64,000 bases of DNA, taken from contig DHAP01000034.1 of the NCBI GenBank assembly GCA_002397465.1, positions 1,506 through 65,505 on the forward strand, read 5' to 3'. Below are positions 9,682 to 48,949 of this stretch, in pieces. The first letter of the stretch is position 1, and each line of letters starts with the position of its first letter. The DNA comes from Bacillales bacterium UBA4951. GTDB lineage: Bacteria; Bacillota_I; Bacilli_A; RFN20; CAG-826. The notes under the pieces were generated by a model. That model searched no databases. It worked only from the letters and a program-made list of their open reading frames with translations, and was not told the DNA's origin. Position numbers and translations under genes: made by a program.

Positions 9682-9715
9682 TGATTCGACTCCGACTTGT
9701 TTTATAATCCCTTGT

Positions 9716-10444
9716 ATGAAAAAGAAAACCGCCCTTTTGTCTCTACTGGCACTCCAGCTTTTGTTTTCATGCTCCCCAAGGTCCAGCTTGGTGGAGATTT
9801 CCAACGGAATCTCGACGCTTTCTCAGCTATCTTCCTTCCCTAACGAGAACCCCCTTTCCAGCGGTTCATATTCAATGTCCCTTTATTCCTATATATATAG
9901 CGATGAGGAAATGGAGAAAGAAGTCTCTAGGAAGAGCGGCGTTTTCACTTTCTCGGACACGAGCGCCTATTCTCTTTCATACGCATACGATGATGATGGA
10001 ACCAAGAGCGTGAGCGATCTTTTCTATTCGGGGGATACGCTCCGCATCAAAGATGCCTCGGGAGAGCGCGATTTCAGTTCCACGGCCGATTCGTTTTTCT
10101 CCACTTTCATCTCCTTCAAGGAGCGCCTATCATCCATCAGCGTCTCATTCGCCTCCATCAGCCACGATTATCTTTATAACGTCTACAACAAAATATCCAA
10201 CCCTCTTGCCTCTTATAACCTTCTTTCTTATGGCTCAGGTTCACTCGAAGTCCATTTAAAGGGATCGCATTTGGGCTATGACGAGTTCTTTTATGTCGAC
10301 TCATCCAAAATCAATGGCCTCATCGATGAGATCAAGATCACGTTTTCCGAAAATAGAATCTCAAACGTTGTGGCCAATTACCAATACGAAGTCGACAGCC
10401 TGACACGTTATGGGACGATGAATCTCTCCATCAACTATCGATGA
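9716..10444 (+). CDS. Putative lipoprotein, function unknown
   Basis: Signal peptide MKKKTALLSLLALQLLFSC with a lipobox-like LFSC. The rest is Ser/Tyr-rich with no known motif. Confidence 0.55.
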   Translation: MKKKTALLSLLALQLLFSCSPRSSLVEISNGISTLSQLSSFPNENPLSSGSYSMSLYSYIYSDEEMEKEVSRKSGVFTFSDTSAYSLSYAYDDDGTKSVSDLFYSGDTLRIKDASGERDFSSTADSFFSTFISFKERLSSISVSFASISHDYLYNVYNKISNPLASYNLLSYGSGSLEVHLKGSHLGYDEFFYVDSSKINGLIDEIKITFSENRISNVVANYQYEVDSLTRYGTMNLSINYR

Positions 10445-11849: not shown

Positions 11850-12998
11850 ATGCAAGGAAACAAGAAGAAAATAGTCAAGGCCACTTTCATCCCTCTTGCA
11901 GCCATTATTTTGAGTGGATGCGGTGCTTCTACTTCCAGTGAATCCACCAGCGTGAACGGCATTTATACCGTCACCTATTACGATGACAACGTCACGGATG
12001 AAGGAACTTCGAGCCCCAACAGGGTCGGTTATAGTTATGTCGCGACCGGCCATGGAGCCCTTTATCCGACTCATCTTGATGAGGGGGCCACATACAAAAC
12101 GAGCAAAAGCGGGAGAGATCCTTCTGGCTTAGGAAAGTATTGGTCTTTCTCTTCTTTCGCCGGAACGTATGAAGACGGAACCGCCGTCGATTTGAAAAAC
12201 ATCACCGGAGATTGCTCCGTTTACGCTCAATTTACCGAAAAATCCTATAGTTGGACTTTTAACTATTACAATTCAGGACGATTGATAAAAGACGCATCTG
12301 GCGATTCCATTTCCCAAACCTTGGTTTTCGATGGAACGACGCTTCCAGATTTCCCACCCAACAGCAAAGTCTCATCTTTGACGAGTTCGACCACACAATG
12401 GTTCGAGACGTCTTCTTTCACCGGATTCTCATTCGCCTTGGACACGGCTCACACTTCGCTTGATGGCATCACCATCCAAAGCGGGGATGCCGCTCCTAGC
12501 GGAGACGCCACAAAGGGAGTCGTTTATGTCTCCAAAGAGAAGACGGACAAAAACAGAACCTATCCTTTATATTTGGGCAACGGCAGCGATTGGGTGTCTT
12601 TGGGCAATCTCAAAGATGGCGTTTCGCTTCGCCTCAACGCCGAATATGATACCGAAGCGCGTCCGTTCACAATGACTTTATATCCGACAAAAGCAGACTT
12701 TACCGCCAAAACGAATGCATATACGACGACTTACCATCCTGTTTATGGCGACAGCTTGGAAGTGAACGTCGGGACGAATTCCATCACGATCAAAGATCTT
12801 AAGCCAGATACCTCAATCAGGTGGCAGGCCACCATCAACCAAGCCGATTTCACTGGGAGCCCGACCACATTCGGAGACTGGGCGATGGTCTACACCGGGA
12901 CCGATGGTCTTCTCGATGCGGATGTTGACCCTTATATAGGCACCGACGTTGATTTATCCAAGCCTATTTTTGAGAATTGCGCCTTCTATTTGAAATAA
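11850..12998 (+). CDS. Putative lipoprotein, unknown function
   Basis: Signal peptide with lipobox ILSGC. The mature part is Thr/Ser/Tyr-rich and looks beta-rich. Confidence 0.6.
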   Translation: MQGNKKKIVKATFIPLAAIILSGCGASTSSESTSVNGIYTVTYYDDNVTDEGTSSPNRVGYSYVATGHGALYPTHLDEGATYKTSKSGRDPSGLGKYWSFSSFAGTYEDGTAVDLKNITGDCSVYAQFTEKSYSWTFNYYNSGRLIKDASGDSISQTLVFDGTTLPDFPPNSKVSSLTSSTTQWFETSSFTGFSFALDTAHTSLDGITIQSGDAAPSGDATKGVVYVSKEKTDKNRTYPLYLGNGSDWVSLGNLKDGVSLRLNAEYDTEARPFTMTLYPTKADFTAKTNAYTTTYHPVYGDSLEVNVGTNSITIKDLKPDTSIRWQATINQADFTGSPTTFGDWAMVYTGTDGLLDADVDPYIGTDVDLSKPIFENCAFYLK

Positions 12999-14554: not shown

Positions 14555-15149
14555 AGAGATAGACCAAGAGTTTTCTAAAGGCGATGGCGCGGTGGCTCAC
14601 CGCGTTCTTTTCCTCTTCTGAGCAAACTCCGAAATCAAGGTTGCCTTCATCATAATGGAATATCGGGTCATACCCGAATCCGTTGTGTCCTTTTTTCTCT
14701 TCGAGGATATGACCTTTGCAGACGCCATTGAAGAAAAGAGGCTTGGCTCCTTCTTTTTCAATCAGGCAGATGCAGCAGTGGTATTCAGCCGAACGGTCCT
14801 TGGCGTCTTTCATCAGATCCAAGACCTTTTGGTCGACGATTCCATAATCGGACGAGATTGAGGCGGCATAACGGGCGCTGTGGACGCCAGGGAAATGCTC
14901 GCCCAAGGCTTTGATTTCAATCCCTGAATCGTCAGAGATAACGGGGCGATGAACGATTGAAAAAAGAAACTTGGCTTTGATCAAGGCATTTTCTTCGTAG
15001 GTTAAGCCATTTTCGACGGGCTCTTCGGTGATATTGAGGTCGCTTTGGCCCATCACGATGTAGCCGAGCGGCGAAAGAAGCTCACGAAATTCCCGGAGTT
15101 TGTTCTTGTTATGGGTGGCTAGGACGATTTCTTGATTTAGGCGCTCCAT
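14541..15149 (-). CDS. rdgB: dITP/XTP pyrophosphatase (RdgB/HAM1 family)
   Basis: Motifs IVLATHNKNKLREF, ISDDSGIE, PGVHSARY and GFGYDPIF. Confidence 0.85.
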   Translation of the reverse strand: MERLNQEIVLATHNKNKLREFRELLSPLGYIVMGQSDLNITEEPVENGLTYEENALIKAKFLFSIVHRPVISDDSGIEIKALGEHFPGVHSARYAASISSDYGIVDQKVLDLMKDAKDRSAEYHCCICLIEKEGAKPLFFNGVCKGHILEEKKGHNGFGYDPIFHYDEGNLDFGVCSEEEKNAVSHRAIAFRKLLVYLSIQR

Positions 15150-16054
15150 ATTTTGCTTGCGAGACTAGGATAGTCTATAAATGGGTTTCTGACATTATAT
15201 TGTTTATAAAGAAATTCGTTTCTGTAGGTTTCGGTTGGATCTACGGGGTAGGTGGCATTCCATTCCAAAAGGCGGGAAAGTTTGCCCATCGTCTTCTTTG
15301 AGGCGCTGTCGCTCGGGTTGTCGCTGAGCTCAAGCCCGTTTAGTTTCCAATAGCGGGTGGCGGTGTAGAAGATTATTCTGGCAGCCATTCCACGATATTC
15401 CGGATAGCCTTCGCTCCCCGGATCGTAGGTATTGGCACCATCTTTGCTGGGAATTCCATAAAAGTTGTTGCCACGTCCGCTGTTGACCTTGACGGATGTC
15501 GGTCTCAGCATATGCGGGTCGGCGCCCGGGCCGCTTTTGCCGACTCCTCTCGAATTCGGCCAAACATGTTCTTTGTTCCATGTAGCTCCGCTGTCCCACA
15601 CGGGGTTTAGAGGGGCTCTATCATAAAAGCCAACCAAGTGTTTTGGGTCTTTTGGATTAAGGTCCGATTTGAGCAAAGTCGTATTCAGTTTGCTGTAGTT
15701 AGGCACGCTGTTGGCGGCATTGTTCAAAAGCGTAGCTAAATTTCCACGTAAGGTATTTCCGGTTTGGCTGAAATCGACTTTTGAATAATAGGCGCTTGGG
15801 ACAATCGGGGTATCATCTGATGAATCGCTAGATGCCGGCTCACTTGTGGAAGGTTCGCTTGTGGAAGGTTCGCTGGTAGATGGGCTGCTGGTCGATGGCT
15901 CACTAGTCGTGGGGTCACTCGTCGTCGGAGCGGGTGCGCTGGTCGTGGTGTCGGTAGAAGAGTCGGTGTTTGAAATGCTCGAAGTATCAACGTCACAAGA
16001 GGCTAGGAAGAGGGCTGCGAGGAAGCAAATGAGTGGTGCAAGTCTTTTTTTCAT
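15137..16054 (-). CDS. Endonuclease I family extracellular nuclease, lipoprotein
   Basis: Lipobox LFLASC, a PSTSE-repeat linker, and the catalytic-region motif NKEHVWPNSRG typical of Endonuclease_1/Bsn-like nucleases. Confidence 0.7.
   Translation of the reverse strand: MKKRLAPLICFLAALFLASCDVDTSSISNTDSSTDTTTSAPAPTTSDPTTSEPSTSSPSTSEPSTSEPSTSEPASSDSSDDTPIVPSAYYSKVDFSQTGNTLRGNLATLLNNAANSVPNYSKLNTTLLKSDLNPKDPKHLVGFYDRAPLNPVWDSGATWNKEHVWPNSRGVGKSGPGADPHMLRPTSVKVNSGRGNNFYGIPSKDGANTYDPGSEGYPEYRGMAARIIFYTATRYWKLNGLELSDNPSDSASKKTMGKLSRLLEWNATYPVDPTETYRNEFLYKQYNVRNPFIDYPSLASKIWSA
15843..15932. repeat. 15-bp in-frame tandem repeat (~6 units) encoding the (P/T)STSE linker of the nuclease
   Basis: cttgtggaaggttcg occurs twice, followed by four diverged 15-mers. 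The minus-strand translation is TSEPSTSSPSTSEPSTSEPSTSEP. Confidence 0.8.
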
Positions 16055-16855: not shown

Positions 16856-17758
16856 TTAAGCAAATATTATGCTAAAGATCAGCCCAATCAAAGCAAGATG
16901 CACTGGGTAGTAGAGATACTCGGAATAACGGAACCATTTTTTGTCATATCCTCGCTTGCCGTTATAGAGGAACAAGAGGATGGCGTCGACTAAGCAATAG
17001 GTTTGCTGGGACATGTAATATGGATCGATCGGCCCCATGTAGGAAAGGGCCCAGAAGAAGACGGTGACGATGACCAGAACCGAGATGTAAATGGTGTTGG
17101 TCATCCCCTGATAGCCTTTGCTCTTCAAGAAGCCTTGATAAGCCTCATCGTCGTTTCCGAAGCTTTTCTTGGCATAAGAGGCGACGATTTTCGGGGCGTA
17201 GTAAAAGCCTAAGAACATCAAGAAACCATAGAGGTTATAGCCACCTCTGAAGAGTTCGGGGAAGTACTGGCTCCAGACGCTGGTCAAGGAAGAGCTGGCA
17301 GCATAAGTCTCACTCACGTAGGCCGAGTAACACAAAACGATATAGGCAAGAGGCAAAATGGCCAATCCCTTTTTCCAGCCTTTTTGCTCGAGAAGGTAGA
17401 TGAACAGGGAATAAAGCAGCAAATCCGTGAAAGCTTGGGCGGTGGCGTATCCTGATCCAAGGTTGCCATAATAGAGCACTAATTCCACGACAAACACCAG
17501 AGCCCAGATGAGGGCCAACCTAAGAATATAGTTAGCCCGGTCTTTGGTGTGGCGGAGCCCTTCGGCGAGCATAAGAACGAAAAGAGGAAAAGCCAGCCTT
17601 CCGATGATGCGGAAAGCGTATCCGCAGATATAGGCTCCGCTGCCCTCGGCGAAATAACCGGAATTCATCAAAATGACCCCGATATGGTCGAGAGTCATTG
17701 TCACGATGCCAATGATTTTCAGAACGAATTCGTCGAGTACCTGTGCTTTTTCTTTCAT
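16856..17758 (-). CDS. TraX family membrane protein
   Basis: N-terminal LKIIGIVTMTLDHIG signature in a polytopic protein. Confidence 0.55.
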   Translation of the reverse strand: MKEKAQVLDEFVLKIIGIVTMTLDHIGVILMNSGYFAEGSGAYICGYAFRIIGRLAFPLFVLMLAEGLRHTKDRANYILRLALIWALVFVVELVLYYGNLGSGYATAQAFTDLLLYSLFIYLLEQKGWKKGLAILPLAYIVLCYSAYVSETYAASSSLTSVWSQYFPELFRGGYNLYGFLMFLGFYYAPKIVASYAKKSFGNDDEAYQGFLKSKGYQGMTNTIYISVLVIVTVFFWALSYMGPIDPYYMSQQTYCLVDAILLFLYNGKRGYDKKWFRYSEYLYYPVHLALIGLIFSIIFA

Positions 17759-17765
17759 ATGTTCC

Positions 17766-18665
17766 TTATGCGGCGAAAGCGACGATTATGATTTCTATCA
17801 CTCCGACGAGGTTATTGGTGATGTGGGCTAGGAAGGAAGCGCCGAAACCAAATTTATCATAGAGCCAGGCAAAGACAAAGCCGGAAATAAGATAATCGGG
17901 GAAGGAGAGCCATTCATTGATGTCGTTGACCCAGACTAGGGCCCCCGAGGAATTGTATTTGAGAAAGTTCATGTGGATGAAGGCGAAGAAGACCGATGCC
18001 ATGATGTAGGCGAAATAGGTGTTGGCCCTTTTGCTTAGCCCGAACAAGCCGACCCGATATGTGAGCTCCTCGCAGAAAGGGCCAAGTATTCCGATGCAAA
18101 GGACCGCCAAGACCGGCGACTCTTTGACGATGAGAATGATGTTCTTCTGGTTTTCGTTGTCGCTCGTGGCTCCCAAAGCGGTGGAGATTTGGCTCCAAAG
18201 AGAACTGATAAGAATCAACACGATGCCACCTAAGATTCCATAGAGGCATTTCTTGTTTTTGAAGTTTGAGAAAAGACGTGGGATGTTTCTGCCGACGATG
18301 GCCATCATCACGATGAAAAGGAGGATGTAGGAACCATAATTGACGATGGATAGATACTGAGACGAGGACTGGAATGTCTTGAGGGCCGAGACCAAATCGT
18401 CGCCCGAAAGGCCATTTGAGGCATAAGAAGAACTGACGATTGAGACGGTGATCAAAGCCAAGATGGTGGCCAAAATCTGAAATCCGCCCCAGCCCATCAA
18501 AAATAGTCCGCCCTCTCTCCAAGGACCCATCGGGGTCATGTTGGCGAAACGGCGAGTGGTTTCGCTATCCATCGACGGAGTGTCACAGCTTGGGCATTTC
18601 CCCAGCGCTGGGTCATAGGCTTTGCCACATTTTGAGCAATATTCTTTATGAAAGGCTGTTTTCAT
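17766..18665 (-). CDS. CPBP (CAAX/Abi) family intramembrane metalloprotease with N-terminal zinc ribbon
   Basis: Zinc ribbon CSKCG...CPSC. CPBP motifs FCEELTYR, FAFIHM and HITNN are present. Confidence 0.75.
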   Translation of the reverse strand: MKTAFHKEYCSKCGKAYDPALGKCPSCDTPSMDSETTRRFANMTPMGPWREGGLFLMGWGGFQILATILALITVSIVSSSYASNGLSGDDLVSALKTFQSSSQYLSIVNYGSYILLFIVMMAIVGRNIPRLFSNFKNKKCLYGILGGIVLILISSLWSQISTALGATSDNENQKNIILIVKESPVLAVLCIGILGPFCEELTYRVGLFGLSKRANTYFAYIMASVFFAFIHMNFLKYNSSGALVWVNDINEWLSFPDYLISGFVFAWLYDKFGFGASFLAHITNNLVGVIEIIIVAFAA

Positions 18666-18706: not shown

Positions 18707-18736
18707 TTGATATTTGAACCTATTCCACCCCATAAT
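18707..18736 (+). promoter_or_regulatory. Putative promoter of the giant gene
   Basis: TTGATA (18707-18712), an 18-nt spacer, then CATAAT (18731-18736). It lies 18 nt upstream of the ATG. Confidence 0.4.
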
Positions 18737-18753: not shown

Positions 18754-21700
18754 ATGGATGAGATACTCAATTACATGAACATCGCGCTGATAGTGCTTTT
18801 CGTGGCCGTTTGGGTCATCCTTCTTTTATGTTTTTTGCGCGGGCTCGCGCGAGGATGGCGTTATGGCCTCTATCGTTTCGTCTCTTTCGCCGTCATCTTC
18901 ACGGTGGCTTTGACGACTTTGAAGCCTTTGAGCAATGCCTTGGGCAATTGGGACCTTACCTCATTTGGGATCCCAGAGATCAACATCGCCATTCAAAATG
19001 GTGATTCAAGCGTTAACCTCACCGCCAGTTTCGGAACGCCTTATAGCGTTTTGTCGTCCCTTATTGATCAGTTCTTAAGAGCCATGAACGTCAGCATGTC
19101 CCCTGAAGGCATCGCCAATTATGCCGGGGCTTTGGCTCAGTCGATCGTCTTGCTGCTATTGATTCTCATCGAAGGAATCCTCATCGCCACGATCGTCAAT
19201 CTCCTCGTGATGCTCTTCTGGCATCTTATCTGGAAGCACTTGATTCCGAAGAAGACCAGAAAGGCCACTTATAAAAAAGGAAAGATTTGGAGCGCTTTGT
19301 CAGACACCCTCGTAGGGCTCTTGTGCATGGCGATGATAATCTTCCCGCTCACGAGCGTTGTGAACAGTCTCAGCGATTCCTGGAAGAGCGTAAAGGATAG
19401 CGTTGATGGCACATCGATAAAAGCCGATAAGACGACAGCCGACACGATTGATGCGGTGGTCGATACATATGATTCGTCATTGTTCTCCCAGATTTTCTTC
19501 AGTTGGACCAAGAACGATTCGACTGGTGGAAAGACATTCGATTCCTATCTCATCGACTATCTGACCAAGAGCGATTATAACGACACGACGGTAAGTTTCG
19601 TCCAAGAGGTTTCCTCTTTTGCGAAAATAGGAAGCGCCCTCGTCCAAGGCGGCGTCCTCTCCGAAAACGGCATCAATCAGTCATCGATCGCCTATTTCGC
19701 TTGCACATCATATGCCCCTTATATCCTAAAGGCCCTATCCCAAAGCAGCCTTGTGACGGGAATACTTCCATATGCCCTTTCCATCTTGACGAACATGGAT
19801 CAGGTCTCTTCCTACGTGAAGACAAATGCCGGATTTGACTTCACAACCTATAACTATTCAGACTTCATTTCCAAATTCGCTGATTTATATCAAGGTTTGA
19901 TCGATAGCGGAATAACCGGTTCCTTGTTTGACGATGACGGGAACCTCACTTCGACTGAAGGGCTGCTTGAAACCGCCTTTAGCGGCGACACCGTCACTCC
20001 GATGGAAGACTTGCTCAACGCCCTCGACAGCGATGAGCTCAAGCTATTCGACGATCTTGTCTCGACCGCTTTGTACGTTCAGGCGTGCAAAGACACCACT
20101 GACGGGACATCCGCAGACCCGACAAAGTTTGGCATTTCTGATTTCCTCCCGTCGGTCGGCACTGATTATGACGAAGACGGGGATGGGACGCCTGATTCGG
20201 TTCCGACTTCCTTTTCCGACATCGACTGGGGCACCCAAATAGCCACTTTATATGATACGGTCGTTCAATTGTTCTCGATAGACAGCCGTTTCTTCACAGT
20301 TTTGGCTGGCGGCATCGATAGTGGTACCTTCAGCATGGACATCAACGACCTCATCACCATCATCGTCGATAACATCGACAAAGTTGGCGAGATATTCTAT
20401 GGCAAAGATGAAACCTCAAGCGAGACCACGAGCGGATTGAAAAAAGAAGCCTCAACCTCTACCAGCAAATGCCTTTTGGATTCGATGTTCGTCGAGAATG
20501 CCTTGCCAAAAGCTTTGGACTATCTCGCTTCCTCGCTCAACACCTCCTTCTCGCTGAGCGATGAGAACGCGATTGATTTCGCTGACGTCAAGAGCACCTT
20601 GTTCAACGATGACATGGACACGCAAATCTCTTCGGTCAAAACGGAATTCAAATCCCTTTTCACCGTGGTATCGACAATCTGCAAGAGCGATGACGGAAAG
20701 GCCTTCCTCACAAACCTTGAGGAGAAACCTGGCCTATATATGAAGGACAATGTCTTTTATGGGGCCAGCGATGGCTTATTGGACGCATTGGCTGATAGCT
20801 TGGAAAAGCTTGATGATTCTTCCATCGCATCTGCGATCATGCCTAAAGTCTTTAACTCATTCTTGTCAGGCAGCGACTCGATATTCGCCTCAATGAACAT
20901 CAATCTGACCCTTAACTTCGACAACATTAAAGTCGGCGAGGAGCTTTCAAAGATCGTGAAGGCCTTCAAAGGATGCCAAAACATCATCACTTACGTGCAA
21001 ACGCTCGGCGATACGGCATCTTTGACGGGTTCAGCCCTTTCAGACGTCCTCAACACTTTCGCCGCTTATAGCGATGAACTATCGACTTTGCTCAACCTCT
21101 TCGTCACCTCAAAAATCTTCAATCCGACGGCCAGCTCGACCTATTCCACCAACCAGAACCTTTACGAGGTCATCAATTCTTTGCTTGGTTCGTTCATGAG
21201 CGGCGATTATTCGAGCACCCTGCAATCCGTCATTGAGAACACCAACTTCAAAGCTTCCGACGAGATGGACTCTTTGGTCACGATCATCCAAGATCTAGCC
21301 TCGAATTCCATTCTCTCCAAAATCGATGAGTTCAAGAACACCAGCTCGCTTTCGGTCCTTAGCGACATCGACTTTACGACCTTGTTCGCGGACATCAACG
21401 ATTCATCGATCATCAGTTCTGTTTTAGGAAAGGTCCTTGACTCCTTGCTTGAAAACTCCGGGATCTTTGCCGCCGGGGAACTCGGCTCAGAAGGGAATCC
21501 TTCATTTACCAATGTCACAAACTGGGAGGATGAAGGCGCTGGCATTTCAGCCCTTATCAAAGCGGCCGCCACCATCGGCGATTTCAGCAACATCGACTTC
21601 CTGAACAGCGACCCTGATGTCATTACGGACATCATCTCTTCATTGTCGCAGTCCCAGATCTTCACCTCCAAGGATACCGAAGGGAATGAGACTTATGTCT

Positions 21701-24700
21701 TCTCTACTTATATAGGCAATAAGCTCATCTCCTATTTTTCGGGCGATACCATGAGCGACACCGTCAAAGAGTTCTTCTCCGACAAAGGAACCGACTCAAC
21801 CAATTACACCTATGAGACATTAAAAACCGCTTTTGCAAGCGTCAGCAAAGCCGAATGGAAGAACACCGAAGCCGCCAATTTGGGCGACATGATCTATTAC
21901 ATCCAACAGATGGGCGGATTGGATTCCTTCTCCGGCGACCTCAGAAAGCTTTCGGCTGACTCGATTTCCTCTTTATTGGACACCATTTCCTCTTCCAAGC
22001 CTTTCGGTCAGGTCGTCACCTATCATTTCTATTCCACTTTGGTCAACGTCCTCCAGTCTTCTTTGACCGCTTTCTCCTATTCGAACCTTGATTACGTCTA
22101 TAGCGCAACCGCGGCTCAAAGAAGAAGCGAGAACACACAGCTCTCCAAACTGCTTCACGTGGTCCTTGACCCGAACGGGGTCGATAGCAGTGGCGCTTAC
22201 ACCTACGCCTTGCTCGATTCGAATGGCAATGTCTCCTCGTCCATTTCCATCGACAACGCCGATCCGGACTATGTCGTGACCCCGTTACTGGAGTCCTTGG
22301 CCGACTCTTGCGTCTTCAACACCCTTAAAGTCAAGACCACGACTCCGACCGTCACTTATGAGAGCCAGACGGCTTTTGAGGCCGAGGTCAGCGATCTTTT
22401 GATTTCCTCAGGTTTATATGGCGATTCGGCCGATGAAAGCGTCAAATCAAACGTCCGTTCGATCGTCAGCGCCGTCGCTCCTGACGATACGAGCACCAAT
22501 GATGACGAGAATTCGAGCGATACAGGCCGCTTTGGGAAGTGGAATTCTGAAATCTCCAACTTGGCCACGGTTTTGGGCGACGTTCAAAACATGGGGTTGG
22601 ATTTCTCCTCCTTCTCCCTCACCAGCCTCTTCAGCGTCGGAAGCGCCAACAACGAGGCCAACCGTCAGAACATCGAAGGACTTTTGATCGACATCAATGC
22701 TTCCAAGTTACTCTACAAAGCCGTTCCGCTACAGATCAAGAACTCCATCAGTTCCGTCAGCGGATCCGGCAGCGGGCTCAACCTCACCGGCGTCAATTAC
22801 GATTATTTGAATGGGCAGCCTTATGGCGATGACGAATGCAAGACCCTCTCCTACGTAATAATGGATGGCACCTTGCTTCAAGGCGTCGACATGTCGAGCG
22901 TCGCAAGCCTCACTGATTCCGAGATTGACATCTTCTCGCAGCTGCTTACCAAAATGTCCTCGAGCCGCGTCTTCAACACCCTGGCCCTCAAGGATGACGG
23001 AATAACCTATTATTCCGAGACCGCCTTCGAAAGCCAAATCAGCGAATTCCTTATCTCGTCGGAATTATATGGCGACAAGACCAGCGAAACGGTCAAGAGC
23101 AAAGTCCGTTCGATCGTCGATGCGGTGGCGCCTGATGATGGCACTATCACCACGGACGATGCCGCGAGATTCAAGATCTGGGCCGGCGGAGACGGAGCGA
23201 CCGGAGAGGTCGACAATATCGTGAATGTTTTAAGAGATATCAAGAGCCTTAATCTTGATATGTCTTCCTTCTCATTTACCTCGATGTTCAGTGGGGTCGA
23301 TGATGCTACCGCCAACACGAACCGCGAGAACGTCGCCAGTTTGTTGAAAGACATCAATGCCTCCAAAGTCCTTTATAAAGCCGTTCCTGTCCAAATCAAG
23401 AACTCCCTTGACTCAGTAACGGGTTCTGGCAGCGGACTTAATCTCACTGGCATCAACTATGACTACCGTAATGGACTACCATACGAGGACAGCGAATGCG
23501 ACACCCTTTCCTATGTCATCATGGATGGCTGCCGACTCCAGAACGTCAACACGTCAAGCGTTTCGAGCCTCACCGATTCGGAAATTGATATTTTCTCCGA
23601 GATGCTTACGAAGATGTCTTCTAGCCGTATTTTCAACACTCTGGCTCTCAAAGACGACGGAATAACATATTATTCCGAGACCGCCTTCGAAAGTCAGATC
23701 AGCGAGTTCTTGATCTATTCTGAGCTCTACGGCAGCAAACTTGACACATCTGTCACTTCAAACGTCCGCTCGATAGTCGATGCGGTGGCACCGGATGATT
23801 CAAGCGTAACCACGGACGATGCCGCTAGATTCAAGATCTGGGCCGGAGGCGATGGCACCACGGGCGAAGTCGAGAACATCGTCAACGTCCTGCGTGACAT
23901 CAAGAGCATGAATCTGGACATCTCCTCATTCTCCTTCACTTCGATGTTTGCCGGCGTCGATGCGGCAACCGCCAACACGAACCGCGAGAACGTCGAGAAC
24001 CTTCTCGTGCACATCAATACCTCAAAAGTTCTTTATAAAGCCATACCGGTTCAAATGAAGGGCGCGGTCGAAGCGACCAACGTCGGAACCTCGGGCTTCA
24101 CTCTCAGCGGAGCCAATTACGATTACAAGAACGGCCAACCTTATGGCGACGACGAATGCAATACGCTTTCTTACATCCTCATGGATTCGGCTTCGATAAG
24201 CTCAATCAACGCCAGCGACATCGCGAGCTTGAGCGACTCATCGATCTCCACCTTGACGGATCTACTCTCCTACATGGCCAAGAGCCATATCTTCAACTCG
24301 ACCTCTTCTGGCAGCGGATCGACTGTCTTCCAAAGCAATTTGGCCACAATCTTGACCACTGACACCTTAGGCGATATCTATTATTCGTCGATCAGCCCTA
24401 AGGATACCTATTTCACGAACCTTAATTCCGCGAGTGGGACCTCTGGCCTCTATTATTCCGACAAGAGCTCCAAATCGGCTTACTATTCTTCTTATTACTT
24501 CCCATCGATCGGAGTCAATTCCAGCGCTTCGAGCTATGACGTCTCACTCATCAATGGCGACAACGGCTCAATCAAGAGCGTCCTCACTTTGCTTCGCGAT
24601 AATTCAACCGCTCTTTCTTCTTTCAGCAGCGGTGGAACCTCCTCGATCAATGAGACGACTCTCGTCAGCGTCCTTGAAGGTCTCAACGATTGCGAGCTCT

Positions 24701-27084
24701 TCACCGACTGCGTCCCGAACCTGATCGGCAAATTCACCTCTTCTTCGGACATTAGCTTCGGCAGCGTCAACTTCTCGAGATCCAACGCCTTCTATTGCTA
24801 CTGGTTCAAAGGCGGCAGCATGCTTCTCCCAGCCTCACAGACCGACGCCAACGCGACCTACAACATCTCTTACACCGGAAATGATGGCAAGTACAGCAAC
24901 GATGAAATCGAGCTCCTTTCCTCAATCATCAAATCCCTCAACAGCAACCAGACGCTTCTTGGCTCGCTCTCTTCAAGCGGCATCGCCAATACCACCGAAG
25001 GGGCGACACAGCTGACGTCATTAAGGTCTCTCTTCACCTCGTTATCGGAATCTTACGTCTTCAATTTGGCCGGAGCCTACCAAGGCAATTCGTCCACGAA
25101 TTCCGCGCTTGGCGTTCCTGACGATCTCACTTTGTTCGAACAGACGATGTTCACCACCTATCATGATTCCGAGCTTTCTTCGAGAGCCTACAATTCCAAT
25201 TACGATTCGCAGTCGTCCAGCGATGCAAAGCTTTACTATTACATCAAAGGATTCAGCGATTCATCGATAGTTTTGTCCACCTCCCATGAAGGCGACTGGC
25301 TCACTGAAATCAACAATTTGGTCTGTGATGAGACCTGTTCAAGCAACAAAGGGCTCCTCAACATCCTCCGTGAGAATGACTTGCTCTCCGGTGGCTTGAA
25401 CCTTTCTTCCAGCAGCATGAACGTCTCGACTTTTGGGACCTCCTTGCTTAACAGCTTCATGAGCTCACTCAACTCGATCGACGTCGTCAATGACGCCGTC
25501 CCGTACACGATGTCGAGCTTCATCGAGGAGACCTTAGGTTTCCGTACCTACAGCGAATATACCTCATCGGTCACCGCGATAGGCGCCACGAGTTTTGATT
25601 CCTCATCAATCGGAACCGGCGGCGGAAGATACGACAAACTTGTCGTCACGTTGGCAAGAGCCTTGAATAGCGGTGAGAGCCTCACTCTAAATTACTCGCT
25701 CAATGGCACCGGTCACACCGAATTTGCCTACACTGGCTCAAGCGGAGAGAACTATACCTTTGATTTCGTGGGCTCCTCGTTGGCCCCGGTCTCCTTCACT
25801 CTCACTTCGAGCGTCAGCATCTCAAGCCTCAAATATTCGATAGACACCGCCGACTATTATGATCTGAGCCAAGCGCAGTTAGCCGATACGACGGATGCCC
25901 TCGGCAATGTCACGAATAGCGGATTCATCACCAAGATGACCGAGCTGGCCGCCTGCCTTACCAAAGACAGCGTCTATGGCAGTGGCGACAGCGGCTATAT
26001 CGACTTCACGAGCCCGACCGACGTCGGCGCTTTCATGACGGGCAGCAACTCCTTGGCTCCGCTTCTCAACTTCCTCAATTTCAGCGATGGCGCCTATCTC
26101 GTCAACACCTACACCTTGAATGGTGAAGAGCTTAATGCGGGGACGGCCTCGAGCAATGACTTTACTTCGAGGGACGTCGCCTTCACCAACCTCTTGACCT
26201 TCGACTACACGGCCGCCGGTTCGACTACCACGGTGTCTTTGTCCAAATATCTTGCCAAGGCCACGATCGCCGCTGATTATGAACTTAGCTATTCCTCTGC
26301 CGCCGAGTATAAAGGATCGAAGGCCATCTTTGATGACGCCAGTTATTCAAGCGACTCCGAAGCCACCTGGATCACGAGCGGCATCACGAAAGTCGCGGCC
26401 GTCGAAGCCGGATATCTCAGCAGCGCCAACAGCACCAATTTCCAGTACACCTACAGCGGGACGACTGTCTCCTTGAAGAAGATCCATTGCGAGCTCTCGG
26501 TCTTCTCTTCTTCGACTGACACGATCAACACCTTCGCCTCGCTTGGAAGCAACTTGACGACTCATCCGTCTCTCCTCGGTAACCGTTTGGTCGCCGGCGT
26601 CTATGACCGTCTCATCTACAGCATGATGAACTACATCCAGAGCGGGTCTTATCAGAACGAACTGGTGGCCGTCGCCACGTCTTCAGCCTCAACCAACCGT
26701 TCTAGCTACAGCGCCTACTCGACTTACCTCTCGACTTATAAGTCCTTCTACGACGAATCGAGCAACATCGTGAGCTTTGCAAGCGAGATTCCGTCCTTGC
26801 TCAACGTCGTGAACAAGATGGGATTCGTGGCCAAGTTCGGCGGCAGCTATGACGCCTCCGCGGCCAAGACCGCTTTCCAGGGCTTATCGAATGATTCTTC
26901 ATATGCGAGGCTCTTCTATCTCGGTGCCTACTATGATTACTTCATCAACTACAGCTACTACCATGGCGACGTCGTCAGCTATGGAATCGTGGTGTCGCCA
27001 GAGGTCGATTATCCGAACTCATTCAATCTCACGAGCTTCCCAGCCACCAATACATTTGCCAACGCTTATGCCACGATCGCTTGA
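18754..27084 (+). CDS. Giant (2,776 aa) N-terminally membrane-anchored, Ser/Thr/Asn/Asp-rich modular repeat protein, function unknown
   Basis: Uninterrupted 8,331-nt ORF. There are four to five N-terminal TM helices followed by ~2,550 aa of degenerate modules. No enzyme, LPXTG or lipobox motif was found. Confidence 0.85.
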   Translation: MDEILNYMNIALIVLFVAVWVILLLCFLRGLARGWRYGLYRFVSFAVIFTVALTTLKPLSNALGNWDLTSFGIPEINIAIQNGDSSVNLTASFGTPYSVLSSLIDQFLRAMNVSMSPEGIANYAGALAQSIVLLLLILIEGILIATIVNLLVMLFWHLIWKHLIPKKTRKATYKKGKIWSALSDTLVGLLCMAMIIFPLTSVVNSLSDSWKSVKDSVDGTSIKADKTTADTIDAVVDTYDSSLFSQIFFSWTKNDSTGGKTFDSYLIDYLTKSDYNDTTVSFVQEVSSFAKIGSALVQGGVLSENGINQSSIAYFACTSYAPYILKALSQSSLVTGILPYALSILTNMDQVSSYVKTNAGFDFTTYNYSDFISKFADLYQGLIDSGITGSLFDDDGNLTSTEGLLETAFSGDTVTPMEDLLNALDSDELKLFDDLVSTALYVQACKDTTDGTSADPTKFGISDFLPSVGTDYDEDGDGTPDSVPTSFSDIDWGTQIATLYDTVVQLFSIDSRFFTVLAGGIDSGTFSMDINDLITIIVDNIDKVGEIFYGKDETSSETTSGLKKEASTSTSKCLLDSMFVENALPKALDYLASSLNTSFSLSDENAIDFADVKSTLFNDDMDTQISSVKTEFKSLFTVVSTICKSDDGKAFLTNLEEKPGLYMKDNVFYGASDGLLDALADSLEKLDDSSIASAIMPKVFNSFLSGSDSIFASMNINLTLNFDNIKVGEELSKIVKAFKGCQNIITYVQTLGDTASLTGSALSDVLNTFAAYSDELSTLLNLFVTSKIFNPTASSTYSTNQNLYEVINSLLGSFMSGDYSSTLQSVIENTNFKASDEMDSLVTIIQDLASNSILSKIDEFKNTSSLSVLSDIDFTTLFADINDSSIISSVLGKVLDSLLENSGIFAAGELGSEGNPSFTNVTNWEDEGAGISALIKAAATIGDFSNIDFLNSDPDVITDIISSLSQSQIFTSKDTEGNETYVFSTYIGNKLISYFSGDTMSDTVKEFFSDKGTDSTNYTYETLKTAFASVSKAEWKNTEAANLGDMIYYIQQMGGLDSFSGDLRKLSADSISSLLDTISSSKPFGQVVTYHFYSTLVNVLQSSLTAFSYSNLDYVYSATAAQRRSENTQLSKLLHVVLDPNGVDSSGAYTYALLDSNGNVSSSISIDNADPDYVVTPLLESLADSCVFNTLKVKTTTPTVTYESQTAFEAEVSDLLISSGLYGDSADESVKSNVRSIVSAVAPDDTSTNDDENSSDTGRFGKWNSEISNLATVLGDVQNMGLDFSSFSLTSLFSVGSANNEANRQNIEGLLIDINASKLLYKAVPLQIKNSISSVSGSGSGLNLTGVNYDYLNGQPYGDDECKTLSYVIMDGTLLQGVDMSSVASLTDSEIDIFSQLLTKMSSSRVFNTLALKDDGITYYSETAFESQISEFLISSELYGDKTSETVKSKVRSIVDAVAPDDGTITTDDAARFKIWAGGDGATGEVDNIVNVLRDIKSLNLDMSSFSFTSMFSGVDDATANTNRENVASLLKDINASKVLYKAVPVQIKNSLDSVTGSGSGLNLTGINYDYRNGLPYEDSECDTLSYVIMDGCRLQNVNTSSVSSLTDSEIDIFSEMLTKMSSSRIFNTLALKDDGITYYSETAFESQISEFLIYSELYGSKLDTSVTSNVRSIVDAVAPDDSSVTTDDAARFKIWAGGDGTTGEVENIVNVLRDIKSMNLDISSFSFTSMFAGVDAATANTNRENVENLLVHINTSKVLYKAIPVQMKGAVEATNVGTSGFTLSGANYDYKNGQPYGDDECNTLSYILMDSASISSINASDIASLSDSSISTLTDLLSYMAKSHIFNSTSSGSGSTVFQSNLATILTTDTLGDIYYSSISPKDTYFTNLNSASGTSGLYYSDKSSKSAYYSSYYFPSIGVNSSASSYDVSLINGDNGSIKSVLTLLRDNSTALSSFSSGGTSSINETTLVSVLEGLNDCELFTDCVPNLIGKFTSSSDISFGSVNFSRSNAFYCYWFKGGSMLLPASQTDANATYNISYTGNDGKYSNDEIELLSSIIKSLNSNQTLLGSLSSSGIANTTEGATQLTSLRSLFTSLSESYVFNLAGAYQGNSSTNSALGVPDDLTLFEQTMFTTYHDSELSSRAYNSNYDSQSSSDAKLYYYIKGFSDSSIVLSTSHEGDWLTEINNLVCDETCSSNKGLLNILRENDLLSGGLNLSSSSMNVSTFGTSLLNSFMSSLNSIDVVNDAVPYTMSSFIEETLGFRTYSEYTSSVTAIGATSFDSSSIGTGGGRYDKLVVTLARALNSGESLTLNYSLNGTGHTEFAYTGSSGENYTFDFVGSSLAPVSFTLTSSVSISSLKYSIDTADYYDLSQAQLADTTDALGNVTNSGFITKMTELAACLTKDSVYGSGDSGYIDFTSPTDVGAFMTGSNSLAPLLNFLNFSDGAYLVNTYTLNGEELNAGTASSNDFTSRDVAFTNLLTFDYTAAGSTTTVSLSKYLAKATIAADYELSYSSAAEYKGSKAIFDDASYSSDSEATWITSGITKVAAVEAGYLSSANSTNFQYTYSGTTVSLKKIHCELSVFSSSTDTINTFASLGSNLTTHPSLLGNRLVAGVYDRLIYSMMNYIQSGSYQNELVAVATSSASTNRSSYSAYSTYLSTYKSFYDESSNIVSFASEIPSLLNVVNKMGFVAKFGGSYDASAAKTAFQGLSNDSSYARLFYLGAYYDYFINYSYYHGDVVSYGIVVSPEVDYPNSFNLTSFPATNTFANAYATIA
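22312..24290 (+). repeat. Three in-frame tandem repeats of ~660 bp (~220 aa) inside the giant gene
   Basis: The unit-start motif (V/I)FN(T/S) occurs at 22312, 22969, 23629 and 24289, giving periods of 657, 660 and 660 nt. Units 2 and 3 share long near-identical nucleotide runs. Unit 1 is more diverged. Confidence 0.9.
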
Positions 27085-27706
27085 CGGGACAAAGTTTTGT
27101 CCCTTGGGCAAAAGCGTTCTTAACTATGAGATTCTCGGATCGCGTTTCATCGCCATTTTAGGTTTCTTCGATGATGAGTCGTCTTTTTCTAGCATCCTTT
27201 CTTCAATAAAAGAGGAATACCCCAAGGCCACTCATTATTGCTATGCCTGCAAAGTGGGGGTCAACGAGAGGATGAGCGATGATGGCGAACCCTCTAGAAG
27301 CGTGGGCCTTCCTTTGCTTAATCTCCTTCATAACGAGAACCTCGATGATGCCTATTTGGTGGTCGTGAGGTATTTCGGCGGGACCAAACTTGGACTTCCA
27401 CGTCTAAAAAGAACCTATGCGAATCTTGCCAAAGACGCCATCTTCAAAGCGGAGTTGGCCGAGATGGAAGAAGGGGAGGAACTTCTTCTTTCTCTTTCGT
27501 ATCATGATTTTGAAGCCTACAAAAAAGGCTGGGACAAAGATGGAACCGAGTACGAAATCAAAGAATTTGGGGAAAAGGTAAGCCTCCTTTACCGCGGAGA
27601 TGCTAAGATAGCAGATGAGTTCAAAAAGCACCTCTTAGAAGGGGCTGTGCTTGATGAAAAGAAAGTCATTATCAAAAGGAGAATAAACAATGATTCCTGC
27701 AAATGA
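27068..27706 (+). CDS. yigZ: IMPACT / YigZ (UPF0029) family protein
   Basis: Motifs GSRFIAIL, MSDDGEPSRSVGLPLL and LVVVRYFGGTKLGLPRLKRTY. ATG at 27068 overlaps the giant ORF by 17 nt and gives a family-typical N-terminus. The ORF-track start at 26849 is rejected. Confidence 0.7.
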   Translation: MPRSLDGTKFCPLGKSVLNYEILGSRFIAILGFFDDESSFSSILSSIKEEYPKATHYCYACKVGVNERMSDDGEPSRSVGLPLLNLLHNENLDDAYLVVVRYFGGTKLGLPRLKRTYANLAKDAIFKAELAEMEEGEELLLSLSYHDFEAYKKGWDKDGTEYEIKEFGEKVSLLYRGDAKIADEFKKHLLEGAVLDEKKVIIKRRINNDSCK

Positions 27707-28979
27707 ATTCGCGTCGAGGAGACAACGCCTCGTCAACATGATGGACAACAATTCGGCCCTGGTGGTTTTTTCGGGGGTTGGTAAAGTCTCATCGGCTGAT
27801 GAGACATATCCATTTGAGGTCAATCGCAATTTTTATTATCTCACTGGCATCGAGCAAGAGGACAGCGCCCTCATGCTCGTCAATAGCGACGGCGAAATGA
27901 AAGAATTCCTCTTCATCTCCCCTTATGATGAAAGAAAAGAGAAGTGGTATGGGAAAAGGCTGACCACCCAAGAGGCCAATTTCATCAGCGGATGCAACAA
28001 CATCCTTTTGAACAACGCCCTCCCAGGCAAAGTCGATGGGGCTTTGAATCCCAACTACTATCAGTTCGGGGAGGTCAAAAAGATTTATCTCGATTTAGAT
28101 AGGGAAATCAAAATAGCCGATTCGACCTCCACCCACGAATACAAAGAGACCATCGAAGCGGCCTACAAAGGCGTTTTGGTCATGGATGCCTATCCTTTGA
28201 TCACCACTTTGAGGCTTAGGAAATCGGTCCGTGAGGTGGCTGAGCTCAGGAGCGCCATCCGCTCGACGCAGTTCGGCATCTCGGCCGTTTGGGCCGCCAT
28301 GCGCGAAGGCTGCAAAGAGTATGAGATGGCCGACTTGTTCCTTAAGACGATCAACGATGACTCCGGCTATCAGGGCCTTTCGTTCCCAACCATCATGGCC
28401 AGCGGAATCCATGGGGCCTGCCTCCATTACCCAACCCCGTTAGACACCATAAAGCCTGGGAGCCTTTTGCTTATGGACTTAGGGGCCAGATGCTCCTATT
28501 ACTGCGCGGACGTGACAAGAACCGTCCCAGTCAATGGCAAGTTCTCCTCATTTCAGAGAAACGTCTATGACATCGTCCTAGGATGCAACAAGATGGTGGC
28601 TGCCATGGCGAGGCCAGGCATCAGCATCAACGACCTCCAAAAAGCCACGGTCGAATATCTTTCGAGCGAATGCCTCGGCAAAGGACTCATCTCCAAAAAG
28701 GATGACATCATCAACTATTATTTCCATGGCGTCTCGCATTTCATCGGCTTGGACACCCACGACCCATATCTCAACCCTCTCAGCAAGGAATACAAAGACG
28801 TCCCTCTTGAGCCAGGCATGATAATCTCCGACGAACCTGGGCTTTATATGGCCGACAAAGGGATCGGAATCCGCATCGAGGACGATTTGCTCATCACTGA
28901 AAACGGATGTGAGGTTTTGACCAAAGACATCGTCAAAGACCCTGACGAGATTGAGAGAATCCTAGCTTCCAAACGTTAA
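27690..28979 (+). CDS. pepP: Xaa-Pro aminopeptidase (M24B)
   Basis: AMP_N-like N-terminal domain (NRNFYYLTGIEQE). Metal-ligand motifs are present: LMDLGA..YCADVTRT, HGVSHFIGLDTHD, EPGLY and GIRIEDD. Strong RBS (AAAGGAG). Confidence 0.85.
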   Translation: MIPANEFASRRQRLVNMMDNNSALVVFSGVGKVSSADETYPFEVNRNFYYLTGIEQEDSALMLVNSDGEMKEFLFISPYDERKEKWYGKRLTTQEANFISGCNNILLNNALPGKVDGALNPNYYQFGEVKKIYLDLDREIKIADSTSTHEYKETIEAAYKGVLVMDAYPLITTLRLRKSVREVAELRSAIRSTQFGISAVWAAMREGCKEYEMADLFLKTINDDSGYQGLSFPTIMASGIHGACLHYPTPLDTIKPGSLLLMDLGARCSYYCADVTRTVPVNGKFSSFQRNVYDIVLGCNKMVAAMARPGISINDLQKATVEYLSSECLGKGLISKKDDIINYYFHGVSHFIGLDTHDPYLNPLSKEYKDVPLEPGMIISDEPGLYMADKGIGIRIEDDLLITENGCEVLTKDIVKDPDEIERILASKR

Positions 28980-36176: not shown

Positions 36177-37343
36177 ATGGCAAACGCACCATTGCCCCGT
36201 GAGCAGTTTGAGGCTCTCTTAAACGAGTTGAGCATCAGCAAGAGCATCAACCGTGATTTCATATACCAATGTTACGTGGACGCGAATGAGGGAAGCGACA
36301 GCCTCAAAGAGAACTCGCCAGTCATCGCAAGGATGGGCCTTAACCCAATTCAGCTGATCCTCTATATCATAAACGAAGAGCAGTTTTATCTTTTTACCCA
36401 CCCGAATGTCAAAGAAGACGACCTTCCAAAAAACGAGAACTATGAGAGGCTTCTAGTCTCCATCGCCTTGGACAAGTATTACACCAATGAGCATTTGGCC
36501 TATAACTCCGGGTCTTTCGCTTCGCGCTTCATCCCAGAAATATCGACTTTGAGCCTTTATCTAAATTTCATCCTGGGGATGCTCAACCGTTATAAGCGGG
36601 GGGACCCCAAAGAAACCCTTTTGGTGGATGTCATGCAAAAAGGATTCTCGATGGCCAAATGCATCATCGACCTTTTGACGAACGGCTTTGAAACCGAGGC
36701 TTTCTCGACTTGGAGGACCCTCCATGAGAACGAATGCATCCTTCAGGTCCTCGTGAAATATGGTCAGCCCGTCATCGATTCCTATCTGAAACACCTTCGT
36801 TATGCCTTGGCCTTCAGAGGGGCTTTGGGTAGCAAAGAAGAGACCGACAAATGCTTTGAGGAGATCAAGTCAGGCATGAGGTCCATCGACCTCAAGAGCA
36901 AAGACATGAAACGCTACATCGAGTATGGCTGGCTTCTAGGCATCAAAGATGTCATGTCGATGGAAGGCTTCAAATTCAATTTCCGCGATGGCGTCGAAAG
37001 ATGCGCCGGACTTCGCGATTATTCAAAGGTCTACGAGATGAGCTCGGAAATAGCCCACTCTTCGCCCTTGCTCATCTATTCAAGAAAGAACTATTTCTAT
37101 CTTGTCACCTTGCTCAATCTTTATGAATCGTTCTTCCGACTCGAGAAGATATTCTCATCTTTGTATCTTTCGACGGCCAATGAGAACGACCGCAACCAAT
37201 ACCTTGCCATGCGAAAGCTTTATTTCGGGGAACTTCTAGCTTGCTATGACCTTCTGAAGAAACGCTTCGTGGAACTGACTCATTCTGGAAAAGCCGAGGA
37301 TCTTCCGCCCAAAGAAACCATCGCTGAAGATAGCGAAGACTAA
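36177..37343 (+). CDS. Hypothetical all-alpha protein tightly coupled to addAB
   Basis: 388-aa ORF starting 4 nt after the addA stop. No confident family. The central GFETEAFSTWRTLHENECILQ weakly recalls DUF5677/HEPN-like helical domains. Confidence 0.6.
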   Translation: MANAPLPREQFEALLNELSISKSINRDFIYQCYVDANEGSDSLKENSPVIARMGLNPIQLILYIINEEQFYLFTHPNVKEDDLPKNENYERLLVSIALDKYYTNEHLAYNSGSFASRFIPEISTLSLYLNFILGMLNRYKRGDPKETLLVDVMQKGFSMAKCIIDLLTNGFETEAFSTWRTLHENECILQVLVKYGQPVIDSYLKHLRYALAFRGALGSKEETDKCFEEIKSGMRSIDLKSKDMKRYIEYGWLLGIKDVMSMEGFKFNFRDGVERCAGLRDYSKVYEMSSEIAHSSPLLIYSRKNYFYLVTLLNLYESFFRLEKIFSSLYLSTANENDRNQYLAMRKLYFGELLACYDLLKKRFVELTHSGKAEDLPPKETIAEDSED

Positions 37344-48863: not shown

Positions 48864-48949
48864 CACATTAATATAGCGGAATTTTCTTCATTATGCCGAA
48901 AAATCCATCATTAAGTGCTAAGATATCCCTATCTTGAAAGGTTTTGTCT

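Follow-up and report, generated by a model that had tools for sequence, protein, structure and literature searches.

A 2,776-residue protein of an uncultured RFN20 bacterium with a CvpA-like membrane domain and a predicted extracellular α-solenoid

The window analyzed here is a stretch of 64,000 nucleotides (nt) from Bacillales bacterium UBA4951 (contig DHAP01000034.1, positions 1,506 to 65,505, forward strand), a member of the family CAG-826 in the order RFN20 of the Bacilli. It contains a single open reading frame (ORF) of 8.3 kb encoding a protein of 2,776 amino acids (aa), referred to below as the giant. We favor, with moderate confidence, a reading in which a peptidoglycan-deficient RFN20 bacterium makes the giant constitutively, as a stalk or coat protein that is tethered to the membrane and lies outside the cell. 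A CvpA-like domain of four transmembrane (TM) helices probably anchors the protein, and the ~2,570 residues that follow TM4 appear to be exposed outside the cell. This ectodomain is predicted to be an almost all-α solenoid with one jelly-roll. The family lies outside every Pfam, NCBIfam, PHROG and PDB family searched.

Membrane anchor and topology

The gene and the segments encoding its anchor are as follows.

18754..27084 (+): ORF of the giant, 2,776 aa, 299 kDa, isoelectric point (pI) 4.2
18754..19398 (+): CvpA-like membrane domain, aa 1-215 (hydropathy, loop charges, profile comparison)
19306..19362 (+): TM4, aa 185-203, preceded by a basic stretch and ending in a conserved FPLTSxVNS; putative export signal-anchor

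Kyte-Doolittle analysis of the whole protein gave four TM helices (aa 10-28, 38-60, 130-160 and 185-203) and no further hydrophobic segment. The initial annotation had placed four to five helices within the first ~210 aa; their location was right, and the count is four. Two short basic loops, RGLARGWRYGLYR and KHLIPKKTRKATYKKGK, are assigned to the cytoplasm. Together they contain 12 K or R in 37 residues; the outer loop that joins TM2 to TM3, 69 aa long and carrying a β-hairpin, has 1. The stretch after TM4 is acidic. By the positive-inside rule, these loop charges would place the large domain outside the cell, and an even number of TM helices combined with a CvpA-type N-out orientation would likewise put the C-terminus outside. 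Since the N-terminal helices are the only hydrophobic segments present and the loop charges put the bulk of the protein outside, the earlier proposal that they hold the protein is supported.

The membrane domain has the arrangement expected of CvpA, namely four TM helices, of which TM1 and TM3 are each followed by a basic loop (hydropathy, loop charges), and residues G30, G34, P198 and N204 are invariant across the giant's family. Pfam Colicin_V (PF02674) scores 11.3 bits (E 0.34) on the giant's N-terminus, below the gathering threshold of 29.3 bits, and sub-threshold matches occur in 7/17 family N-termini (best E 9e-4). A 283-aa protein from another locus (L022:9977-10828) passes Pfam Colicin_V (35.2 versus 29.3 bits), and alignment of the family N-terminal profile to it with hhalign gave a probability of 97.5% (E 5.5e-12, 134 columns). 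We call the anchor CvpA-like because of this transitive homology; the giant stays outside strict Pfam membership. The resemblance to CvpA, first suggested with low confidence, is thereby strengthened. The L022 protein is a stand-alone CvpA-family protein of another uncultured Bacilli metagenome-assembled genome (MAG), with an LLWHxxFKHxxxKKxRK motif common to the giant's family; it could stand for the anchor's ancestral form.

The giant shares with the CvpA family the four-helix membrane domain and a short basic loop after TM1 with G-x-x-x-G/RG, and differs in its 69-aa outer loop with a β-hairpin. Mycobacterial MarP (Rv3671c) is a CvpA-domain fusion with a large extracytoplasmic C-terminal extension, a protease. 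In the giant, the C-terminal extension consists of 2,570 aa of helical repeats, whereas CvpA and MarP have nothing or a protease in this position. No LPxT[GASN] motif or C-terminal hydrophobic segment was found in the giant, and no lipobox within its first 260 aa, which sets it apart from the LPXTG/sortase and lipoprotein classes and agrees with what had been reported from the first inspection.

Composition points in the same direction as the loop charges. The giant contains 15.6% S, 8.9% T, 7.8% D, 4.0% K and 1.4% R, in line with its initial description as S/T/N/D-rich and K/R-poor. For the ectodomain (~2,570 residues, 276 kDa, pI 4.1), K+R amounts to 5.3% and S+T+N to 31.8%. These values are far outside the ranges for 20 window proteins that lack a lipobox (K+R 10-17%, S+T+N 10-21%), a set comprising 18 proteins with cytoplasmic or F1-sector annotation and 2 without a Pfam match. 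The only window proteins close to the giant in composition are three with a lipobox: an Endonuclease_1 protein and the products of the ORFs starting at 9665 and 11850.

The window encodes four putative lipoproteins with a lipobox, at 9665-10444 (+), 11850-12998 (+), 48075-48866 (-) and 15137-16054 (-). For the first, the likely true start is the second Met (MKKKTALL...). The last is the Endonuclease_1 protein, which has a long S/T/P-rich linker. Those at 9665, 11850 and 15137 are S/T/N-rich by measurement, and those at 9665, 11850 and 48075 are without any Pfam match.

Repeat modules and predicted fold

Two motifs recur in the giant with a spacing of ~220 aa. S-x-[VI]-F-N occurs 6 times compared to 0.15 expected, and [AC]-[VI]-P-x-x-[IM] 5 times compared to 0.03 expected, so the recurrence noticed at the outset is real. 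Self-BLAST of the whole protein returned no off-diagonal matches, and tiled BLAST was needed; it revealed tandem copies with a 220-aa period from aa 1135 to ~1850, the two central ones 74-81% identical. In the DNA, copies that are 60-79% identical recur every 660 nt, a period beyond the 500-nt limit of Tandem Repeats Finder, which for that reason reported nothing in the gene.

For a first module hidden Markov model (HMM) we took four segments of 220 aa each (aa 1131-2010), picking the last of them by register. The source stretches scored high, and one additional copy emerged at aa 945-1082, with an independent E-value (iE) of 5e-6. After iteration to convergence over 186 family proteins, the HMM identified seven modules of ~185-235 aa spanning aa 721-2261, with 0 matches in 186 shuffled sequences. 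Four of these are clear by direct similarity (aa 1135-2011), and the other three were recovered via the iterated profile. The modular character proposed at the outset therefore holds, and the estimate of about ten degenerate ~200-aa modules gives way to seven. Neither the first 720 aa nor the last 515 aa consist of the module. Full-length relatives have three to nine modules, six being the commonest number. The parts of the ectodomain are listed below; AF2 denotes AlphaFold2 prediction.

19399..20913 (+): membrane-proximal helical region without repeats, aa 216-720; the ectodomain is most conserved here; with a DxYDNSLFSxxFFxWT motif; all-α in AF2
20914..21465 (+): module 1, aa 721-904; iterated family HMM, iE 1e-20
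21511..22092 (+): module 2, aa 920-1113; iE 5e-6 with the first HMM, 4e-30 after iteration
22099..22803 (+): module 3, aa 1116-1350; tiled similarity, HMM
22804..23463 (+): module 4, aa 1351-1570; tiled similarity, HMM
23464..24123 (+): module 5, aa 1571-1790; 74-81% identical to module 4; tiled similarity, HMM, DNA period of 660 nt
24124..24786 (+): module 6, aa 1791-2011; divergent copy; HMM; helical in AF2
24889..25536 (+): module 7, aa 2046-2261; divergent copy; iE 4e-25 after iteration; helical in AF2
25555..25845 (+): predicted jelly-roll β-sandwich, aa 2268-2364; AF2 strands, model residues 478-574
25846..27081 (+): C-terminal α/β plus helical region, aa 2365-2776; conserved YLGxxYDxxxNRxYYH motif; AF2

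Module number differs between closely related strains. The closest relative of the giant (P0001, from a sister strain) has eight modules, the extra one (219 aa) lying directly before the counterpart of module 4, and the 657-nt indel that separates the two alleles corresponds to exactly one module. At the indel junction just 12 nt are identical in both registers. This short identity indicates real copy-number variation, and collapse during assembly or of k-mers was rejected as its source.

We modeled two parts of the giant with AF2. Residues 1-1130 (12-sequence alignment) gave a mean predicted local distance difference test score (pLDDT) of 76.7 and a predicted template modeling score (pTM) of 0.55, with ~60 helices and a few hairpins. 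Residues 1791-2776 (11-sequence alignment) gave a pLDDT of 76.5 and a pTM of 0.72, with helical modules, a β-sandwich, and an α/β plus helical C-terminal region. In Foldseek searches against the PDB, the top matches of the helical parts were exclusively α-solenoids (CRM1, importin-β, FANCI and BIRC6; best E 4e-4, TM-score 0.1-0.15). The β-sandwich matched jelly-rolls, including the BC2L-C lectin N-domain, YPM, CBM6, Ena subunits and C1q-like phage proteins (probability 0.9-1.0, E 0.01-0.2). Matches in BFVD were confined to this ~100-aa jelly-roll. All of these matches, which come from predicted models, are a guide to fold class and not to homology.

Sequence-based searches were largely silent. 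We found no family-threshold match for the giant in Pfam, NCBIfam or PHROGs, and none among PDB sequences by profile search. Pfam returned no HEAT, Arm or related repeat, the sole match of this kind being a sub-threshold PPR_2 (E 0.003). There was no FIVAR or GA module, which separates the giant from the Ebh/Embp class, and no SLH, CWB2 or other wall-binding domain of the kind that marks S-layer proteins. Across the 2,570 ectodomain residues, Pfam and NCBIfam detected no enzyme or transporter motif. At Pfam thresholds, then, the initial statement that the protein has no recognizable domain is correct; it has to be amended for the CvpA-like N-terminus detected by hhalign and for the predicted jelly-roll at aa 2268-2364. 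A confident profile match to a known adhesin or enzyme family, which would have told against an uncharacterized family, was not found in Pfam, NCBIfam, PHROGs or the PDB.

The gene, its family and its locus

Over 18754..27084 (+) the ORF has no internal stop codon, which confirms the single uninterrupted frame originally described, and a protein identical to the giant is called on 5 contigs from at least 3 samples. P0001, a protein of 2,995 aa, is encoded intact on a single contig of 1,627,576 bp. UW_MP_BACIL1_1, a PacBio Sequel II genome, is a single contig of 1.6276 Mb with 48.4% GC, classed as Bacilli; RFN20; CAG-826; UBA4951 sp002397465 (PMC9302107), and from the agreement in size and GC we infer that it is the contig of P0001. 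Outside the one indel, the two alleles encode proteins that are 99.5% identical, and the ratio of nonsynonymous to synonymous substitution rates (dN/dS) is 0.115. From these values it follows that the window strain and that of P0001 belong to the same species and that the gene is under purifying selection.

Given these data, the notion that the ORF arose by misassembly or chimera formation, or that it is a pseudogene in decay, is effectively refuted: the window does come from a short-read metagenome contig with 660-nt repeats inside the gene, and draft MAGs contain a few relatives in split or truncated form (e.g. L016), but the contig matching a long-read genome holds an intact allele where an interrupted or chimeric one might have been found, hundreds of full-length homologues of 1,500-3,000 aa exist, dN/dS is low, and the repeats share only 60-79% of their DNA sequence.

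Synonymous divergence (dS) between the two strains is uneven. It is 0.06-0.09 in aa 721-1350 (window 20914-22803) and 0.004-0.007 elsewhere in the gene; among the neighbors, TraX and YigZ have a dS of ~0.08, and PepP and CPBP a dS of 0. This mosaic suggests recombination tracts. A promoter-like site also lies in front of the gene; it comes from a consensus scan only and is not evidence of function.

18707..18736 (+): TTGATA, 18-nt spacer, CATAAT; 18 nt upstream of the giant's ATG

A first homologue search returned 26 proteins, which range from 1,573 to 2,995 aa and lack any Pfam domain. We then compared a profile of aa 1-1130 with 1.84 billion cluster representatives and obtained 576 clusters (defined at 50% identity) at E ≤ 1e-3, 221 of them at E ≤ 1e-30. 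Among the 150 matches listed, most are 1,500-3,000 aa long and match nearly the whole profile, the shorter ones being mostly partial matches. All names given to these proteins read 'hypothetical protein', so the description of the family as uncharacterized extends to all 576 clusters, and source labels are Bacilli bacterium, Mollicutes bacterium and Candidatus Enteromonas. In the literature searched on giant proteins linked to CvpA, on the surface proteins of RFN20 and on extracellular solenoids of Mollicutes, we found no description of the family. Scanning species-representative genomes turned up 22 loci, every one of them in a MAG of uncultured Bacilli; the MAGs come from rumen, gut and reactors. 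Beyond these, a 1,080-aa Acholeplasmataceae protein shares just the first ~280 aa of the giant (hhalign 97.4%).

The families CAG-826 and CAG-288 of RFN20 have been predicted to be deficient in peptidoglycan (PMC10868615; for the host family see also PMC9302107), a prediction that supports the original guess of a probably wall-less cell, and the order is reported to lack sortases (PMC10868615).

Conservation along the giant is highest at aa 1-300. Mean identity is 37-41% in the membrane domain and the base of the ectodomain, falling to ~20% in the distal parts. Across loci, the giant is 22-53% identical, compared to 57-80% for PepP and 70-80% for GlpK. Such fast divergence is typical of exposed proteins.

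The window is an ordinary piece of chromosome, with an ATP synthase operon, AddAB, GlpK, ABC exporters and tRNAs. The immediate neighbors of the giant gene are these.

16856..17758 (-): TraX-family membrane protein, part of the same conserved block
17766..18665 (-): CPBP/Rce1-like intramembrane protease, divergent neighbor of the giant
27068..27706 (+): YigZ/IMPACT-family gene, whose start overlaps the giant's stop by 17 nt
27690..28979 (+): Xaa-Pro aminopeptidase (M24), PepP, overlapping the end of YigZ; third gene of an apparent operon

A thioredoxin (Trx) gene lies beyond CPBP and TraX, divergent from the giant. This block, Trx-TraX-CPBP on one side and giant-YigZ-PepP on the other, is present in 8/8 of the genome-scan loci examined that have enough flank. 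It is kept, including the CPBP adjacency, in relatives whose giant is only 24-29% identical, and the outer flanks differ. Each genome has one giant locus, in a gene block conserved across the clade. Two contigs of MAG RGIG6804 (L010 and L011) each carry a family N-terminus, 96% identical to one another; we rejected paralogy here, as this identity indicates a mixture of strains in the bin. Also rejected was an origin in a prophage or mobile element, given the housekeeping context, the lack of a PHROG match and the restriction of BFVD matches to the jelly-roll. Collinearity extends over the whole region throughout the clade; function therefore cannot be read from adjacency, and functional coupling of the giant with its neighbors on the basis of synteny alone was rejected for the same reason.

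In two other species of the genus UBA4951 (UW_MP_BACIL4_1 and UW_MP_BACIL6_1; L004, L005; 9995-14881), the same locus holds a 1,628-aa version, followed directly by YigZ, that is only ~22% identical overall to the giant of the window. As to YigZ itself, a mechanical ORF list gives a 285-aa ORF (26849-27706) overlapping the giant by 236 nt; gene calls and homologues favor the 212-aa form starting at 27068.

Candidate functions and known systems

If the giant is a tethered stalk or coat protein, as we favor, TM4 would act behind its strongly basic loop as an uncleaved signal-anchor that exports the ~2,570 residues. The solenoid would then stand on the naked membrane as a long rod or arch, acidic and hydrophilic, with the number of modules setting the length of the rod. 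The jelly-roll, near the distal end, could be a ligand-binding site, probably for glycans, or an oligomerization site. In cells without a wall or sortases, the giant would do the work carried out elsewhere by wall-anchored surface proteins, serving as a surface coat, a spacer or a means of attachment. Its conservation as a single copy at a fixed locus argues for an envelope component that is constitutive, and against an accessory adhesin. Of the 'surface fibre, coat or adhesin' first proposed, then, surface exposure is supported by charges and composition, the precise role is still conjecture, a predicted α-solenoid with one jelly-roll is unlike the β-rich fibers typical of bacteria, and the fixed, single-copy locus does not suit an accessory adhesin.

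Several points weigh against this reading. Function is deduced from the architecture of a protein without a characterized homologue, and the topology from the positive-inside rule and composition. The AF2 models were built on shallow alignments of 11-12 sequences, with low confidence in the membrane domain, and the Foldseek matches (TM-score ~0.1 for the solenoid, E 0.01-0.2 for the jelly-roll) are not significant as homology. α-Solenoids are classically intracellular scaffolds, with few extracellular cases among bacteria. YigZ and PepP, which share the apparent operon, are housekeeping proteins of the cytoplasm and tell nothing about a surface role. Finally, FPLTSxVNS after TM4 could be a cleavage site, in which case the protein would be released and not tethered.

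This last possibility leads to an alternative that we consider unlikely. TM4 would be cut by signal peptidase I at VNS/L, or by the neighboring CPBP protease, and the 276-kDa part would be released into a matrix or coat, either secreted or in loose attachment to the cell, while the CvpA-like domain stays behind. TM4 does follow a basic, n-region-like stretch and ends in the family-invariant P198...N204 (FPLTSxVNS), where small residues are compatible with positions -3 and -1, and the CPBP/Rce1-like protease is a conserved divergent neighbor even where the giant is 24% identical. This adjacency is a weak clue, since conservation covers the entire block with its housekeeping genes. The membrane domain, moreover, is the best-conserved part of the protein and is homologous to a family of stand-alone membrane proteins, which would be unexpected for a disposable leader.

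A more ambitious proposal, also one to which we assign a small probability, is that the giant's family forms a lineage-defining extracellular α-solenoid exoskeleton of peptidoglycan-deficient Bacilli, rooted in the membrane by a CvpA-type domain and replacing the lost wall in shape, osmotic support and barrier function, with TraX and CPBP modifying or processing it. Its scope would be RFN20 families CAG-826 and CAG-288, with distant relatives in Acholeplasmataceae.

Rather improbable, in our view, is that the CvpA-like domain is the functional core, in transport, export or envelope stress, and that the ectodomain is an accessory that captures or regulates substrates, by analogy with MarP fusions. 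The invariant G30, G34, P198 and N204, the peak of conservation at aa 1-300 and the Acholeplasmataceae protein would all suit such a scheme, the last suggesting that the N-terminal unit is an ancient conserved element. CvpA itself, however, has no established mechanism, the 2,570 residues contain no enzyme or transporter motif, and the cost of a 299-kDa protein and its strain-level variation in length fit a structural role better.

We regard a reversed topology as very improbable. Here the large domain would be a HEAT-like scaffold attached to the membrane on its cytoplasmic side, for instance a part of the cytoskeleton or a determinant of shape in a cell without a wall, as might be expected from a predicted fold class that is almost always intracellular and from an operon shared with cytoplasmic genes. 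Against this, the loop charges strongly favor a C-terminus outside, as does the even number of TM helices with a CvpA-type N-out orientation; the composition resembles that of the window's lipoproteins and not that of its cytoplasmic proteins; and divergence is very fast relative to the neighboring genes.

The tethered stalk or coat can be set beside several known systems. The architecture predicted for the giant, long arrays of helical hairpins, recalls that of HEAT/ARM solenoids (CRM1, importin-β, FANCI, BIRC6), although the similarity is not significant, and BIRC6 also combines a helical arch with a β-sandwich insert, as predicted here. The giant's unit is ~220 aa with roughly ten helices, versus a 40-aa hairpin, and it is bacterial and predicted to be extracellular. 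The ~100-aa sandwich (aa 2268-2364) resembles jelly-roll lectins, CBM6, C1q/TNF, Ena and phage fiber tips with high Foldseek probability (0.9-1.0), but with E-values of 0.01-0.2, target TM-scores (TMt) of 0.3-0.5 and no sequence similarity.

Staphylococcus Ebh/Embp (FIVAR-GA) are very large, acidic, repeat-built and mostly helical surface proteins, held by a TM segment rather than by LPXTG and variable among strains in repeat number. The giant resembles them in size, acidity, repeats, predicted helicity, TM anchoring and variable repeat number. It differs in its polytopic, CvpA-like N-terminal anchor (theirs is a single C-terminal helix), its module length and its wall-less host. Mycoplasma mobile Gli349/Gli521 and P1-type adhesins are of the 300-kDa class, TM-tethered on the naked membrane of wall-less relatives of the Bacilli and used for attachment; the size class and the TM tether on a wall-less membrane are shared with the giant. 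Unlike these adhesins, to which Pfam and PDB profile searches detected no sequence or profile similarity, the giant is a predicted solenoid encoded in single copy at a conserved housekeeping locus, outside adhesion or motility clusters.

Giant repeat-built surface proteins are thus already known. What would be new, if the models are right, is a CvpA-anchored, predicted extracellular α-solenoid with a jelly-roll, encoded by a core gene of peptidoglycan-deficient Bacilli. RFN20 and its allied orders comprise uncultured Bacilli with no wall or a reduced one that are abundant in rumen, gut and fermenters, and the ~300-kDa giant is probably among the largest single investments of a 1.6-Mb genome. 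If it is their main surface structure, it would define contact with fiber, mucus, phages and host immunity, add an extracellular CvpA-anchored α-solenoid to the known bacterial surface architectures, offer a concrete handle on the role of CvpA-type domains, and provide a marker and antigen for enrichment or imaging of this uncultured group.

Some further observations concern gene order. In the P0025 lineage (L026 6664-12567), a ParA-like gene takes the place of YigZ, and PRK-family, pyrophosphatase and choline-kinase genes directly follow PepP; in the window, genes of these three kinds (37412-39064, 48944-49486 and 51260-52123) lie 10-25 kb downstream. In a distant relative (L027 14169-18285), the giant block is followed by two very large proteins (1,077 aa and at least 831 aa) with Endonuclease_1, Big_2/Big_3 and LTD domains. 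The window also encodes a 466-aa Sel1-repeat protein (4824-6224, +) upstream of two ABC exporter genes, and a DUF5677 protein (36177-37343, +) directly after AddA.

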